Counted from the stretch's first letter, positions 38,542-64,000 are shown. The stretch is DNA of 64,000 nt from an uncultured Nitrososphaeraceae archaeon (GCA_963765895.1 CAVXZB010000073.1:32001-96000); one strand, 5' to 3'. Program-made: numbers and translations. Notes: a model not told the origin generated them from the letters alone.

Positions 38542-40898
38542 ATGGTAGTTCAGGTCAGCTATCCAGGAGTTTATATTGTAGAAAAGCCAAGTGGCGTACA
38601 TACAATAACAGGTGTGTCAACTTCCATTGCTGCATTTTTTGGACAAACACTCGAAGGTCCCGCAAATAAGGCCGTACCGATTATTTTCTCCGCTGGGTTT
38701 TGAGAAGACATTTGGAAAATCACACCCCGATAGTGAATTATCAACCGCAGTACGATTGTTTTTCGAAAACGGAGGTTCTGATTGTTATGTGGTCAGAGTC
38801 GTGAATGGTGGGAAAAAAGCCACTGCTATTTTAATGAATGAAAATGGACATAAAGTCCTAAATTTTGAAGCCAACGAGGTTGGCACATGGGGAAATGAAA
38901 TAGGAATCGAAGTCGACTACAACACTTTACAATCAGAAGAAACGTTTAATCTGCATATTTACAGAATTAACGATGACGGAACTATAAACACAATTGAAGA
39001 ATTCTTAAACTGCTCTCCTGATATTGATAGCCCAAAATTTGTCTGCAAATTAGTGAATCAAAAATCTAATCTCGTTGATTGTAAACCTGAAGTCGACGCT
39101 GGTGCAACTGACAACGATTATAGACAGTCCACAGTCAAGCCAGGATATTCCGTCTCCAGAAAACCTCTAGATATTGGACAGGCAGGGATTGATGAGCTAG
39201 CAAATATAATTTCGTCTGCATCTTCACAGAAATCTTTCAAATTCCAGATAAGTGTAGATGGTAGCCCGTTCTATGAGGTAGACCTGCATGATGCCTTCGC
39301 AGTCGGAGAACCCATCGCAACAGCTATGAATAACATCAAACAGCAAATTAACAAAGCTCTTCCTACTTCACTCGTAAATTGTGTGAATGTAGAACTAATC
39401 AATATACCAGGAAGTTCGTCACCAGGAATAAAACAGCTTCTTAAATTTTCATCCAATACGCCAGATCAGAAGAGTATTGTTATTCAAAGAGCCTTCTCAA
39501 ACGACCTTGCTGGACTAATAATGCTTGGAACCGAGCAGGGAGGAATAGAAAGATCCAGTTATGCACCTCTCCGTCCTGCTTCAAATGGAGTCATTTTCGA
39601 TATCAACTTCATAGATCAGCTAGCTACAAAGTCACAGGATGCTGTTAATGAGATAATGCTTGATGGCAACTCCATAAGTCTAGGAACGAGTCTGCAAACC
39701 GTAACACCACCACTTACTACTGAGTGGTTTTGGTATAAGAGTAATCTGTCTGGTATTGAAGGAACAGATGGCATAAGAGAAAAATTTAGAATTATATCTA
39801 ATTCAATAATTAATGCAAATCTCGGTTTTGATGCCTACCTTGCAGGATCAAGACTTGTAATAAAGAAAAGAGCAGGACCAGCCAATTCTGTATCTATGCT
39901 CAGGACCGTGCCAGCCGCTGAAGATATTGGGCCATTTTTTAAGATAAATCCAAGACTTTACACATTAGATTCTGGTTTAGATGGCTCCCCTCCAGATGTC
40001 TCAACCTATCTTGGTAATGAGATCGATCACACAGGATTTTTCGCACTCGATCTTGTTGATCTGTTTAATCTCATGGTTATTCCAAAGGATAAGAACCTTG
40101 ATGAAGATGATTATAGGAGTCTTTGGGGACCAGCCAGCTCTTATTGTAAAGATCATAGAGCATTTTTAATCGTCGATCCACCAGAAAGCTGGGATAGTCC
40201 TATGAAGGTTTTAGATCCTATGGTGGGTATTAATTCACTCCGTGTAGGTCTAAACAAAGATTATGCCGCTGTTTACTTTCCTAATTTGATTATTAGAGAT
40301 AGAGATGTTCTTAAAACTGTGGGACCGGGAGGAGTTATTGCTGGTCTGTATGCTCGTAATGATTCCTCTGGTGGAGGCGGTGTGTGGACAGCTCCGGCTG
40401 GACTCTCTGCTGATATCCGTGGCGGAATCTCGGATTTGGATTTATCATTGACAGACGCAGAAAACGGACCACTTAACAAGGCGGGTGTAAATTGCCTAAG
40501 AAAATTTCCCTCAGGAATCGTGAGCTGGGGTGCTAGAACTGTAGATGGAGCAGATGATTTTGGGTCAGATTGGAAATACGTTCCTGTTCGTCGTTTGGCA
40601 CTCTTCCTAGAAGAATCTCTTTACAGAGGCACGAAATTTGCAGTATTTATGCCAAATGATGAACCATTATGGGCTCAATTGAGAGGCAGCATCACCACAT
40701 TTATGAGAAGTCTGTTTAGAGTCCAGGCATTTCAAGGCACGACCGAAGAACAAGCCTTCTTTGTAAAGTGTGATAGCGAAACAACTACTGCAGATGATCA
40801 GAATAAAGGAATAGTAAATATTCTAGTAGGTTTTGCAGACTCTCAAACCAGCAGAATTTGTAGTAATAACGATACAGCAAATGGCAGGAGAAGCTTAA
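38542..40898 (+). CDS. Contractile tail sheath protein (about 785 aa after correcting two frameshifts)
   Basis: VSYPGVYIVEKPSGVHTITGVSTSIAAFFG, FFENGG, VWTAPAG, SWGART, WKYVPVRR, PNDEPLW, LKPAEFVVITIQQ; RBS AGGAGTGG upstream. Confidence 0.96.
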
Positions 40899-40916
40899 AC
40901 GGAGGTGATTGATTAA

Positions 40917-41387
40917 TTGAGCGTAAGACCACTCTCTCTTATTGCTACGAATAGATTTCAACTAATAATGAACGGACAGCCAGTAGCGGCATTAAAAAAG
41001 GTGGGAACACTTCAGAGAACTACTACGCCGATCACTTATACAGATGCCACCACAGGTGTCGAGGTAAAGATGCCAGGAAATACTAAAATATCGTCACTTA
41101 CCTTGGAACGCGGTCTGACCCGCGACGAAGGGTTTATTGAGTGGGCAGATCTAGTATTCTCCTCAAAAGATCCATATGAAAAAGAAGGTTTCAAGCGGGA
41201 TTTAATGCTGGAAGTATTGAATAGTCAAGGCCATGTTGAGCATAGGTGGCTTTTAGAGGGCTGCTGGCCTAGTGAAATCAAAGCTAATCCAGATTTGGAC
41301 TCTGAAACAAATGCAATTGCTATTGAATCTCTAACCATCCAGTTCGATGCGATGTACAAGCAAGAAGTGCCGGCGACAAAATCATAG
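40917..41387 (+). CDS. Tail tube protein (T4 gp19-like)
   Basis: KMPGNTK..LTLERGLT...FIEW...RW.LEGCWPS...LDSETNAIAIESLTI; RBS GGAGGTGA. Confidence 0.93.
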   Translation: MSVRPLSLIATNRFQLIMNGQPVAALKKVGTLQRTTTPITYTDATTGVEVKMPGNTKISSLTLERGLTRDEGFIEWADLVFSSKDPYEKEGFKRDLMLEVLNSQGHVEHRWLLEGCWPSEIKANPDLDSETNAIAIESLTIQFDAMYKQEVPATKS

Positions 41388-62311: not shown

Positions 62312-62529
62312 TTAGATAAAACATTCCAACTTAACTATTATCGTAAAGAATATGAAGTATGTACTTGAGCTGTTGACCCGATCTGTTGAGGAGTTGAATA
62401 TTTTCAATAAAGAATTACTAACGAACATTAACTAATTATGCCTTGTTAAAGGATCGAAAACAATTGACTTGATGAATGAATGAGCAGCTAACCTTATCTA
62501 TTCCTTAGTTCATCAACTCTCTAACGGTT

Positions 62530-64000
62530 ATGCAGTTCGCTAGTGAATACAAGTCAAACCTCGGAAGAAGCCTCCAGGATAACAGAAACCAAGTATATGC
62601 TAGCAAAAATCTTCATGAAATCAGCTCAATTTATCATCAGCTGAATAATAATACAGTATTTCGGAGTATTAATTCTGACTCTTGGTGTCCTTGTGATGGT
62701 ACCTGCCCCAAATGCAATCGGGTCAACAACCGTGCAAAATCTGTCCCAATCGGGTTAAAAATCAGTAAACCTGATGATCCTTATGAACAGGAAGCCGATA
62801 AAGTAGCGGAGCAGGTTATCCGGCTTCCCTATTCTAATATTGCAGTATTAAAGCAAGAAGAAGGAGTATATCGAAAATGTGCTGTATGTGAGGCGAAGAA
62901 AGAAGAAGATGAAGAGGAAAAGGAAGAAAAACTAGAGAAAAATTTAAAGGTTAGTCGAAAACAGTCAACCGTACAAAATGCTAATACGAGTGATGCAATA
63001 AGCCAATTTACCAATGTAACTTCAAGCAGCGGCTCACCACTTGATAGTGATATTAAGGAGCTAATGGAAACAAAGTTTGGCTTTGACTTTAGTAACGTAC
63101 GTATTCATACTGACCACTATGCCAACAAGTCAGCAAAATCGATTAATGCTAAAGCCTACACATTTGGTAATAGGATCGTATTTGGCGAAGGACAATTTAA
63201 CCCGCATGCAAATGAAGGGCGCAGGTTAGTTGCCCATGAGCTAGCACATGTGGTACAGCAGAGTCGCATGGGAATATTGGTTCAACGTGCTATGGAAAAG
63301 AGCTGTAATTATGAACCAGGCGAAGTAGTTAAATCTCATTCTAAAAAGGGCATTTTGGATGTAGATGTGGCATTTGCTGGTTACTTTGGAATCGACAAAC
63401 CATCCAATACGATAGTAATAGCAGATTTTGTAGTAGAAGATCCAGATCTTAGGCCCTCAACTAAGGCTGAGTTAAATACAAGATGGATTGGCACTTTCAA
63501 GAAAGCCGACACGCTTGAAGTTATTGGTTATTCTGATTGTACTGGATCTGAACTATATAACGCCTCCCTTCGTGAAAAACGTGCTCAAGGGGTATCACAT
63601 ATTTTCGGCCCATCTGGACCAACTATAAGAGTGATAGGGGCGGCTAAGACTAGTGATTATCTGACCGACAATACAACGGAACGCGGTAGAGCCCTGAATC
63701 GTTCAGTACTTATTCAATTTCCTCAAGCCGTCCCGTCCCCAGTACCCCAGCCTGTGCCGCCAACTGTTACAATTAGGATGCGGGAACCAGATAACGAAGA
63801 ATGTTCTGAAGACCAACGAAAACATCTTGCTATTGCATTCCCCTTGGCGGAAATGATGATCAGAAATGCCATGGGAGAAATCTCAGAAATGGAGAAGGGT
63901 TCGATAGAGGAAGACGTCTTTATAAGGCATTTCGGTAAAGATGCTTTCTCTCATCGTTGGCACATTAAAAGCACATATTCTGATATCCTCAGACAATGGA
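62530..64000 (+). CDS. DUF4157 (eCIS core) effector-type protein with OmpA-like domain and probable M35-like peptidase; truncated by window end and absent from ORF track
   Basis: Open frame from ATG 62530: CPCDGTCPKC, LKISKPDDPYEQEADKVAEQV, FGFDFSNVRIHTD, AHELAHVVQQ, VQR, IGYSDCTGSELYNASLREKRA...RALNRSV, Pro-rich linker, CSEDQRKHL...HFG. Confidence 0.88.
   Translation, partial: MQFASEYKSNLGRSLQDNRNQVYASKNLHEISSIYHQLNNNTVFRSINSDSWCPCDGTCPKCNRVNNRAKSVPIGLKISKPDDPYEQEADKVAEQVIRLPYSNIAVLKQEEGVYRKCAVCEAKKEEDEEEKEEKLEKNLKVSRKQSTVQNANTSDAISQFTNVTSSSGSPLDSDIKELMETKFGFDFSNVRIHTDHYANKSAKSINAKAYTFGNRIVFGEGQFNPHANEGRRLVAHELAHVVQQSRMGILVQRAMEKSCNYEPGEVVKSHSKKGILDVDVAFAGYFGIDKPSNTIVIADFVVEDPDLRPSTKAELNTRWIGTFKKADTLEVIGYSDCTGSELYNASLREKRAQGVSHIFGPSGPTIRVIGAAKTSDYLTDNTTERGRALNRSVLIQFPQAVPSPVPQPVPPTVTIRMREPDNEECSEDQRKHLAIAFPLAEMMIRNAMGEISEMEKGSIEEDVFIRHFGKDAFSHRWHIKSTYSDILRQW

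Follow-up and report, generated by a model that had tools for sequence, protein, structure and literature searches.

A 64,000-nucleotide stretch of DNA from an uncultured Nitrososphaeraceae archaeon (G000:C73:32001-96000, hereafter the window; contig C73 has 113,878 bases) carries a cluster of genes that is read here, with a probability of about 0.55, as an intact contractile injection system (CIS) of the extracellular CIS (eCIS) superfamily, similar to the antifeeding prophage (Afp) and the Photorhabdus virulence cassette (PVC), which sits on an acquired island of a Nitrososphaeraceae chromosome and most likely acts as a released, extracellular particle. The cluster lies on one strand (+) and runs from window position 38542 to past the end of the window, about 69.1 kb in window terms (window-equivalent positions above 64000 are taken from the 20 kb that follow the window, L004). 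Judged from its genes, it is a genuine and complete cluster of eCIS type, apparently intact, and its ammonia-oxidising archaeal host belongs to a group in which CIS have not been studied and of which other members carry them too. It most resembles lineage II systems with a long sheath.

Proteins were identified by Pfam, NCBIfam and PDB searches, and by comparison with the 80 related loci that were kept. The initial annotation, made from the sequence alone, had described a single-strand cluster at 38542-64000 with all structural modules of such a system and a cargo gene of the DUF4157 family. The searches place all of these modules on the + strand, and 38542 is the true start of the sheath gene once one inserted base is left out; the end had been set too early, as the cluster continues past 64000, with a first cargo gene reaching 64332 and a second ending at 69139. 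The genes of the cluster, in order, and the nearest gene upstream are as follows.

38542..40912 (+): sheath, Cis2/Afp2-4 type, a long form with inserted domains; 784 amino acids (aa) without the extra bases at 38677 and 40839.
40917..41387 (+): tube, Cis1/Afp1 type, 156 aa; Phage_T4_gp19, 97.4 bits (cut-off 28.2).
41420..42317 (+): conserved CIS protein, 298 aa, split in the window at 41936; both halves match a single 298-aa open reading frame (ORF) of the Nitrospirota locus L009.
42317..43253 (+): 311-aa protein, split at 42866; the halves merge after read-based correction.
43264..44505 (+): cap or tail terminator, Afp16/Cis16 type, with a TIG domain, 413 aa; Pvc16_N, 59 bits (cut-off 27), and TIG, 23.9 bits.
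44508..46750 (+): AAA+ ATPase, Afp15/Cis15 type, 746 aa, split at 45210 and 46586; AAA, 96.7 bits (ORF 45271-46617).
46751..47053 (+): 100-aa ORF with no match in Pfam, NCBIfam, further profile scans or the related loci.
47103..47763 (+): conserved CIS protein, 219 aa, split at 47432; both halves match one 238-aa ORF of L009.
47834..48115 (+): conserved CIS protein, 93 aa; same-position homologues in 22 related loci.
48112..49248 (+): candidate Afp7/Cis7-like baseplate hub or tube initiator, 378 aa; syntenic homologues in 17 loci.
49312..49788 (+): spike, a short Afp8/VgrG protein with an oligonucleotide/oligosaccharide-binding (OB) fold, 158 aa; Phage_base_V, 46.8 bits, and VgrG chain 9rce_F, E 1e-08.
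49885..50121 (+): PAAR-like/DUF4280-like spike tip, 79 aa; matches 110-115-aa ORFs in 9 loci.
50193..50585 (+): gp25-like baseplate wedge, Afp9, 130 aa; GPW_gp25, 43.4 bits (cut-off 27.2).
50591..53094 (+): Baseplate J/gp6-like protein, Afp11/Cis11, 833 aa; split at 50820, with its end changed by an extra base at 53021.
53183..55956 (+): second baseplate protein resembling TIGR02243 (Afp12-like), 923 aa; broken at 53551 and 54621, with pieces matching at E 2e-08 and 7.4e-26.
56003..58410 (+): large protein of the tail or baseplate, spread over three overlapping frames; the end pieces match the two ends of a 1186-aa ORF of a related locus (L068).
58461..61683 (+): tail fibre or receptor-binding protein in two frames, with an apparent frameshift near 59.83 kb; eBAP5 (DUF6519) N-terminal part and beta-helix C-terminal part; Atlas score 0.97.
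61676..62311 (+): 211-aa protein, weakly CarboxypepD_reg-like beta-sandwich; PF13620, 22.9 bits (under the cut-off of 32.3).
62530..64000, on to window-equivalent 64332 (+): cargo or effector candidate 1, 600 aa; DUF4157/eCIS_core, OmpA-like and M35 domains.
Between cargo 1 and cargo 2, beyond the window (L004): split IS5-type transposase.
Window-equivalent 67553-69139 (+): cargo or effector candidate 2, 528 aa; DUF4157, eCIS_core at 89.5 bits.
37185..38060 (+), upstream of the cluster: ParB-like protein, 291 aa; ParB_N, 66.4 bits, and HTH_ParB, 58.5 bits.

The best PDB matches of the sheath are all CIS sheaths, led by 9ezm (E 1.9e-52) and followed by 8bky/8bl4 (E 4e-41), Pvc2, Afp3, 7adz and 7b5h, and 16 PDB sheath sequences match at E <= 0.001. 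The sheath ORF found in the uncorrected window (38612-40912, 766 aa) scores 25.9 bits against Phage_sheath_1C, with a cut-off of 26.9. The PDB matches of the tube are likewise CIS tubes (7adz, 7b5h, 8bl4, Afp1 and Pvc1). The cap has homologues in 21 related loci, and the three window pieces of the ATPase, which shows a likeness to the D2 domain of Cdc48/p97, match a single 740-aa ORF of L009. Only the OB-fold part of the spike is present (158 aa), and the 110-115-aa homologues of the tip match DUF4280 (E 7e-05) and PAAR_motif (E 0.008), both under the Pfam cut-offs. The Afp11 protein (ORF 50844-53042) gives 20.8 bits with Baseplate_J (cut-off 21.1) and E 2.8e-40 with TIGR02243, at 138.5 bits and so under the equivalog cut-off of 155.8. 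The 378-aa candidate occupies the position of Afp7, scores 23.1 bits with YQBQ-like (under the cut-off of 27) and has no PDB sequence match. An eight-part Afp backbone defines eCIS loci (Chen et al. 2019, PMC6899500), and of its parts the tube, sheath, Afp8, Afp9, Afp11, Afp15 and Afp16 were all recognised, with the place of Afp7 filled by the sub-cut-off candidate. DUF4157 is described as an eCIS-specific marker gene (Geller et al. 2021, PMC8213781); two genes at the 3′ end of the cluster carry it, and these are the sole two eCIS_core matches in the genome.

In the sequence of the window itself, many of these genes are broken, with at least 11 frameshifts between 38.5 and 56 kb, as the initial annotation had noticed. 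Comparison with the 80 related loci shows many neighbouring window ORFs to be pieces of single genes, and places the N-terminus of the sheath in another frame. Logan contigs of four soil-metagenome runs (X1-X4, from one study), which are short-read data because Nextera-type adapter ends occur among their loose ends, were aligned to window positions 36001-56000. At all 12 sites, every covering short-read contig lacks one window base (1-3 of the four runs cover each site), and none keeps the window version. Removing the 12 bases fuses the split ORFs into proteins of 784, 298, 311, 746, 219, 833 and 923 aa, lengths that match those of the bacterial homologues. Each of the 11 cluster breaks that were checked is an assembly error, and 15 genes between 38.5 and 56 kb have frames that are open throughout. 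The same defect is found elsewhere in the genome. The gene for ammonia monooxygenase subunit A, amoA (G000:C24:168102-168652; L001-L003), is read in three frames within 550 bases, and of 121 ORFs taken as references from a closed genome in this family, the 47 that matched the assembly at 45% identity or more contained 11 frame changes in 17,256 aligned residues, or about 0.2 per kb. Since the short-read contigs lack the extra bases and the indel defect is genome-wide, the apparent frameshifts between 38.5 and 56 kb are assembly errors and not decay. A dead locus is rejected for this part, where all split ORFs are restored by the short-read contigs. As a practical warning, indels occur about once per 2-5 kb in this long-read assembly, in which at least one contig end is chimeric.

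Apart from the indels, twelve single-base substitutions between 39904 and 55472 distinguish the window from the X1-X4 contigs, some of them common to two or three runs, which suggests that closely related strains with the same cluster live in those soils.

The host is, on its genes, a Nitrososphaeraceae ammonia oxidiser, as the initial annotation supposed, because the assembly (4.91 Mb, 88 contigs, 88% complete) carries an archaeal amoA on contig C24 and an archaeal rRNA operon on contig C84, and the MarC protein on the conserved part of C73 has its named relatives in Nitrososphaeraceae and Ca. Nitrosopolaris (68-76% identity). Foreign DNA does occur in the assembly. The first 8.5 kb of contig C48 (C48:1-8500) have 74-78% GC and a complete bacterial 16S rRNA gene (RF00177, 1603.7 bits; L008 covers C48:1-3146), and the GC content drops abruptly to about 35% at 8.5-9 kb, beside a copy of the genome's common insertion sequence (IS) at 9175-10128; this end is a chimeric join or a contaminant. 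C73 has no such compositional break, and a principal component analysis (PCA) of tetranucleotides puts it inside the main cloud of the genome. The relative synonymous codon usage (RSCU) of the CIS genes correlates with that of the host core contigs at r = 0.96, within the range of 25-kb chunks of the host (5th percentile 0.94, median 0.97, n = 84), whereas the Nitrospirota locus L009 reaches 0.76 and the chimeric end of C48 -0.72.

Mobile elements also tie the contig to the archaeon, as IS lying before, within and after the cluster recur in dozens of copies at 83-99% identity on C84, on C24 and in same-genus genomes. The IS at window 26228-27180 (about 950 bp; ORF 26289-27176, 295 aa) recurs at 95-99% identity in at least 36 further copies on other contigs, C84 and C24 among them, and at 77-89% in all six genomes of the same genus. 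A second IS (window 34900-35919) has many copies in a same-genus genome, those between and after the cargo genes recur at 83-100% throughout the assembly and all six same-genus genomes, and the first 20 kb of C73 are a mosaic of the same genus-typical repeats. Short-read depth is even over the junction of the ParB and sheath genes, and the backbone that follows the tRNA-Ala gene of C73 is 79-94% identical to same-genus genomes. From IS sharing, RSCU and this Nitrososphaeraceae backbone, C73 is assigned to the archaeon and the cluster to an archaeal genome. A chimeric or bacterial origin of C73 is rejected on the tetranucleotide PCA, RSCU, IS sharing and read depth. The initial annotation had named a chimeric or bacterial contig, a prophage and a dead locus as the ways in which it could be wrong, and none of the three was borne out (the last over 38.5-56 kb). 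Several further IS families are equally abundant in the assembly, and the abundant IS families probably explain both its size of 4.9 Mb and its fragmentation.

The cluster lies on an island rich in IS, probably acquired by horizontal transfer, whose end is marked by an integrase beside a tRNA-Ala gene. After cargo 2 come more transposases, an archaeal-type integrase on the opposite strand, and MarC. The tRNA-Ala(CGC) gene (C73:106565-106637) lies directly beside the integrase; homology to same-genus genomes begins exactly there, as does contig C37, and this point is the right border of the variable region. For the left border, no att-like direct repeat of 16 bp or more was found between C73:60000-70700 and 96300-113878, nor is there a partial copy of the tRNA-Ala gene in C73. 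The sheath was not found in four of the five other same-genus genomes, and the fifth (G065) has a partial match and one DUF4157 gene. The first part of C37 (C37:1-7303) repeats the end of C73 (C73:106564-113878) at 99% overall, and C4:1-2217 repeats its last 2.2 kb at 100%; these repeats may represent an assembly branch point, or a population variant that lacks the island. No tRNA or Rfam matches were found within the window.

ORFs of at least 150 aa cover 83-84% of bases in the CIS region and 11-47% in the 70 kb upstream. That upstream DNA (window 1-38000 and C73:1-32000) has few long ORFs, and is a mosaic of repeats common to other contigs and to same-genus genomes. The ParB-like protein encoded upstream of the cluster probably belongs to the mobile island and not to the machine. 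In the 480-base gap that precedes the sheath gene (examined over window 38380-38541), an A-rich stretch is followed by TAAATATA near 38390, and GAGGAG occurs about 15 bases before the ATG at 38542. These could be an archaeal promoter and a ribosome-binding site, or chance occurrences in such AT-rich DNA.

Several proteins of the cluster are less easily named. The 298-aa protein has a weak T4_baseplate match (E 0.014; E 0.0057 for its L009 homologue). Neither Pfam, NCBIfam and further profile scans nor a BLAST search of the 80 related loci gave a match for the 311-aa protein, which is a candidate tape measure from its position only. The 219-aa protein is possibly tube-like and of the Cis5 type, its CIS_tube match reaching only E 0.067, and no family was found for the 93-aa protein in Pfam, NCBIfam and further profile scans. 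The large protein at 56003..58410 weakly matches tail_TIGR02242 (E 0.0064) and the phrog_521 tail protein (E 0.0089), with no family beyond these.

The fibre and the two cargo proteins bear most directly on the likely target. The C-terminal piece of the fibre (59809-61683, 624 aa) has 938 relatives at E <= 0.001 among 1.84 billion representatives, mostly 1,000-1,600 aa long. Of the best 150, 132 extend collinearly into a match with the preceding ORF, which makes 58461-61683 a single gene. Among six homologues scanned, four carry an N-terminal DUF6519 and four a Beta_helix match. DUF6519 is eBAP5, the baseplate-anchoring domain of eCIS fibres, the C-terminal parts of which are often pectin-lyase-like beta-helices (10.1101/2025.05.13.653841). 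An AlphaFold model of the C-terminal piece (pLDDT 86.6, pTM 0.89) has as PDB neighbours alginate epimerases and lyases, chondroitinase B, a GH87 glucanase and phage tailspikes, with E-values of 8e-06 to 6e-04 and modest TM-scores of 0.14-0.38; the model supports the right-handed beta-helix fold class, and not a substrate specificity.

Cargo 1 combines eCIS_core (107.4-107.7 bits), an OmpA-like peptidoglycan-binding domain (Pfam 19.8 bits, under the cut-off; NCBIfam E 8e-10; PDB E 7e-08) and a C-terminal Aspzincin_M35 domain (36.7 bits, cut-off 30), with HExxH motifs at residues 236 (DUF4157) and 552 (M35 domain). Its first ~240 residues are 49% identical to those of cargo 2, including DUF4157 with HExxH, after which the two diverge, and the C-terminal half of cargo 2 has no match in family or sequence searches. 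A shared N-terminal module with divergent C-terminal halves matches the way in which polymorphic toxins are laid out. The archaeal host has no peptidoglycan, and a cargo that binds it hints at bacteria as targets; such a cargo could just as well be left over from the bacterial relatives of the cluster.

Sheaths close to that of the window come mainly from metagenomes. In a collection of 5.8 billion proteins the nearest are metagenome proteins at 74, 71 and 68% identity (others listed, 64% or less), and with one genome per species the best named matches are bacterial, namely Nitrospirota MAG117 (43%), Anaerolineaceae (42%) and Nitrospira sp. (42%). The 80 related loci include three from methanogen-related archaea and none from Nitrososphaerota, in a scan from which the window's own genome was perhaps left out. 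In a FastTree reconstruction of 120 sheaths the window falls in a clade of 17 metagenome proteins (starred in the tree). Its sister is a starred clade of 26 rows, made up of 14 bacterial sequences from several phyla, one from Methanoregulaceae and 11 others. The hosts of the 17-member clade are probably diverse, since three of its contigs, which carry only CIS genes, have 40, 51 and 60% GC.

Within the host family, a homologue of the sheath was found in 13 of 200 other genomes, including a closed one; Pvc16_N is found in four of the 200 (three above cut-off) and eCIS_core in eight (seven above cut-off, two in closed genomes). The closed genome G106 of the same family has a full eCIS-type locus with a short sheath (C1:407724-433829; L112, L113), in which two DUF4157 genes accompany a DUF6519 protein of 1204 aa, a 521-aa sheath, a tube, a cap with Pvc16_N and an AAA ATPase that also has a winged-helix domain. 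The family sheaths (509-563 aa in seven of ten tree rows) make up a starred clade of their own, and of the window sheath only the two ends align with them. In an approximately unbiased (AU) test on a hand-chosen subset of 51 rows, a single clade of family sheaths and window group was rejected (p 0.00014), a result weakened by the group having been named after the first tree was seen. The window lineage is thus separate from the short-sheath CIS of the family and, because the short-sheath clade stands apart from the window group, Nitrososphaeraceae have taken up CIS clusters at least twice.

A class-wide scan found matches in 7 of 400 other genomes. One of these genomes (G322, 1.7 Mb, 98% complete), from a second family of the same order, has a long-sheath cluster with the gene order of the window at 35-58% identity, split over two contig ends (C56:1-10439, L203; C13:358-6606, L204). 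Its baseplate and DUF4157 genes join a flank that is conserved at 66-93% in 25 of 25 genomes of its genus, and this cluster is therefore chromosomal too. The cap tree gave no resolution on the G322 cluster as the nearest relative of the window.

The likely working of the machine can be sketched from its protein families. A baseplate of the gp25-like protein, the two TIGR02243/Baseplate-J proteins, the Afp7-like hub, the OB-fold spike and the PAAR-like tip would nucleate the gp19-like tube, which would be encased by the 784-aa sheath, with the Pvc16-type cap stopping growth and the AAA+ ATPase aiding assembly or cargo loading. The two DUF4157 proteins, with a common N-terminal module and different C-terminal halves, would be the cargo. 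Binding of the eBAP5/beta-helix fibre to a surface polysaccharide of the target cell would lead to contraction of the sheath, and contraction would drive tube, spike and cargo through the target envelope.

In our view the machine most probably acts as a particle released from the producing cell and directed at other microbes, which may well be bacteria. Cargo 1 joins an OmpA-like peptidoglycan-binding domain to a zinc peptidase in a host without peptidoglycan. Release would be favoured by the lack of a membrane protein in the cluster, the lack of TssC and TssM, the large tailspike-like fibre and the DUF4157 marker. Hydropathy was scanned in the 30 cluster ORFs and showed neither a strong transmembrane helix nor a lysis-like membrane protein, with two borderline hydrophobic stretches only, within the N-terminal part of the ATPase and in the 219-aa protein. 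The same scan gave no strong helix for a membrane anchor of the Hbor_38620 type, no homology search for such an anchor having been made and the upstream ORFs and other contigs not having been scanned. VipB/TssC and IcmF_C, searched for as markers of a type VI secretion system (T6SS), had no matches in the whole 88%-complete assembly, with a positive E. coli control (TssJ and TssL were not searched).

The machine could, alternatively, stay attached to the envelope and fire on contact, in the T6SS-like manner of Halogeometricum borinquense. The best solved match of the sheath is the Cis2 protein of that archaeon (9ezm), whose system has contact action and a membrane anchor (PMC11566945), and particle release may not be easy for an archaeon that has an S-layer but no known module for lysis. 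The large tailspike-like fibre suits a free particle, however, and the cluster ORFs scanned hold no strong hydrophobic helix, an anchor elsewhere in the genome not having been searched for; attachment is considered unlikely. Firing inside the producer, as stress-induced or developmental cell death, would recall the cytoplasmic CIS of Streptomyces. The second-best solved sheaths (8bky, 8bl4) presumably belong to that system, and no release genes were recognised, but neither the polysaccharide-enzyme-like beta-helix fibre nor the peptidoglycan-binding cargo has an obvious target inside an archaeon, and this role seems rather improbable. A somewhat different possibility is a cluster that arrived recently as a passenger of the mobile island, is silent or decaying, and makes no working particle. 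The region is riddled with IS, one of them between the cargo genes, and the patchy occurrence of the sheath in the genus, the apparent frameshifts beyond 56 kb, the long branch of the cap and the lack of an RNA run among the listed runs point the same way. Against this stand the 15 restored genes and 11 of 11 breaks explained as assembly errors, the close sheath relatives in metagenomes (68-74% identity) and the host-like codon usage (r 0.96), which argues for long residence under selection and not for a fresh arrival. We therefore regard a silent passenger, too, as improbable.

Two further explanations concern the origin of the DNA. A bacterial cluster joined to archaeal DNA by misassembly or misbinning would fit the clear chimera elsewhere in the assembly (C48:1-8500) and the bacterial affiliation of the closest named CIS relatives (about 42-43% sheath identity in Nitrospirota and Anaerolineaceae). 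It is very improbable, however, given the uninterrupted composition of C73, the RSCU values, the genus-typical IS that flank the structural genes and also lie between the cargo genes, the even depth at the junction, and the related G322 cluster, which is joined to conserved chromosomal DNA. The tail module of a contractile-tailed prophage, or an R-type tailocin, shares the sheath, tube and baseplate genes common to myovirus tails, and an integrase and a tRNA gene do stand at the island border. This can be set aside almost entirely. As the initial annotation had observed for the part in view, no capsid, portal, terminase or T6SS membrane genes were found: TerL_ATPase, Terminase_6N, HK97-type Phage_capsid and Phage_portal have no matches in the whole 88%-complete assembly, and no lysis-like protein is present in the 30 ORFs. 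The Afp15-type ATPase, the Afp16-type cap and DUF4157 are present, the PDB sheath and tube matches at E <= 0.001 all have CIS-type or generic names with no phage named, and the eight-part backbone serves Chen et al. to separate eCIS from prophages and R-type bacteriocins (PMC6899500).

Several observations weigh against an intact, released particle. The nearest solved sheath (9EZM) is from a contact-dependent system of T6SS mode and is not released, and the next matches (8bky/8bl4), presumably of the Streptomyces CIS, would be from a cytoplasmic system according to abstracts. No release or lysis gene was recognised in the cluster and no immunity gene was identified, and the listed sequencing runs include no RNA run. 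The Pfam scores of the Afp7-like, Baseplate_J, sheath and OmpA matches are just under the curated cut-offs, and these assignments therefore lean on synteny, NCBIfam and PDB matches. Reads were aligned up to 56 kb only, with at least three apparent frameshifts beyond (near 56.65, 57.79 and 59.83 kb); for six of the 12 corrected sites the support is a single contig with a depth below 7, and the runs X1-X4 may be the window's own samples. The cap protein is on a long branch, the third-ligand motif of aspzincins, which we take to be GTxDxxYG, was not found in cargo 1, and a split IS5-type transposase lies between the cargo genes, with more IS copies after them.

Ammonia-oxidising archaea are usually seen as slow-growing autotrophs with little means of direct cell interaction. 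If the machine works, it would, with its toxin-like cargo, equip them for antagonism or defence among the bacterial nitrifiers with which they compete and cooperate in soil; the initial annotation had put forward antagonism, predator defence or programmed death as possible functions. A more far-reaching and tentative proposal, which we are inclined to doubt, is that ammonia-oxidising archaea of at least two families keep working, released long-sheath particles and use them against bacteria, the fibre binding a bacterial surface polysaccharide and the cargo, as a zinc peptidase that binds peptidoglycan, acting in the bacterial envelope. If true, this would be an archaeon-to-bacterium weapon in nitrifying communities, with its closest named gene relatives in Nitrospirota. 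Taken together, the window locus, the short-sheath lineage (13 of 200 genomes) and the G322 cluster indicate that CIS are sparse but recurrent in the order, and the question is therefore testable in existing enrichment cultures.

The initial annotation knew of no characterised CIS in Nitrososphaerota. The literature indeed yielded none that is characterised, and the sole characterised archaeal CIS found there is haloarchaeal (PMC11566945), but eCIS-type loci are present in other Nitrososphaeraceae genomes, one of them closed. A 521-aa sheath homologue is tabled for the chromosome of Ca. Nitrososphaera evergladensis in a 2022 paper (PMC9230969). Apart from that table entry, no description of a CIS in ammonia-oxidising archaea was found in the literature, survey supplements not included. 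Surveys report 10 archaeal loci (PMC6899500), 19 archaea from one archaeal phylum (PMC8213781) and one archaeal phylum among metagenome-assembled genomes (PMC12210884); the main texts of all three make no mention of Thaumarchaeota or Nitrososphaerota, and a thaumarchaeal locus may already be listed in their supplements. With other Nitrososphaeraceae loci in existence and a sheath homologue already tabled (PMC9230969), the novelty of the cluster is lower than was first implied, as far as these sources go.

Compared with known systems, the cluster shares with Afp of Serratia entomophila and PVC of Photorhabdus the eight core parts (Afp7 here as a candidate) and a PAAR-like tip; in all of them the fibre gene follows those for the baseplate, and the 3′ end is occupied by cargo genes. 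Afp and Pvc chains are among the PDB matches of the window's sheath and tube, the sequence matches being confined to the C-terminal sheath domain. Afp and PVC have three short sheath genes, whereas the window cluster has one long gene (784 aa). Its cap and ATPase genes lie in the middle of the cluster and not at the end, its spike is a short OB-fold protein, and its fibre is of the DUF6519/beta-helix type, unlike the adenovirus-like fibre of Afp and PVC. It also differs in its archaeal host and in having no recognisable Afp14 tape measure or Afp6.

The window sheath and tube also match chains 8bky/8bl4, 7adz and 7b5h, which we take to be entries for the Streptomyces CIS, AlgoCIS and the thylakoid-anchored CIS of Anabaena, respectively. 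These systems differ from it in mode of action and accessory genes, that of Streptomyces being cytoplasmic and linked to cell death according to abstracts. The closest solved sheath by sequence is that of the CIS of H. borinquense (9EZM, clade IIa; matched in two stretches), also from an archaeal host, and both clusters were probably acquired horizontally. The H. borinquense system has a conserved membrane-protein anchor, acts on contact and follows a T6SS mode (Zachs et al. 2024, PMC11566945), whereas no membrane protein is seen among the ORFs of the window cluster. It is also described as encoded on a plasmid in two subclusters, with a 574-aa sheath, in contrast to the single chromosomal cluster and 784-aa sheath found here.

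The short-sheath Nitrososphaeraceae loci (G106, L113) have in common with the window cluster the host family, sheath, gp19 tube, Pvc16_N cap, AAA ATPase, DUF6519 and DUF4157, and differ in their sheaths of 509-563 aa and their separate clade. The bacterial loci of Nitrospirota MAG117 (L009), Anaerolineaceae (L010) and Nitrospira sp. (L011) differ in sheath sequence (about 42-43% identity), in sheath clade and in codon usage, but show gene-for-gene synteny with the window cluster from the sheath to baseplate J, with sheaths of about 800 aa and 34-53% identity per protein.

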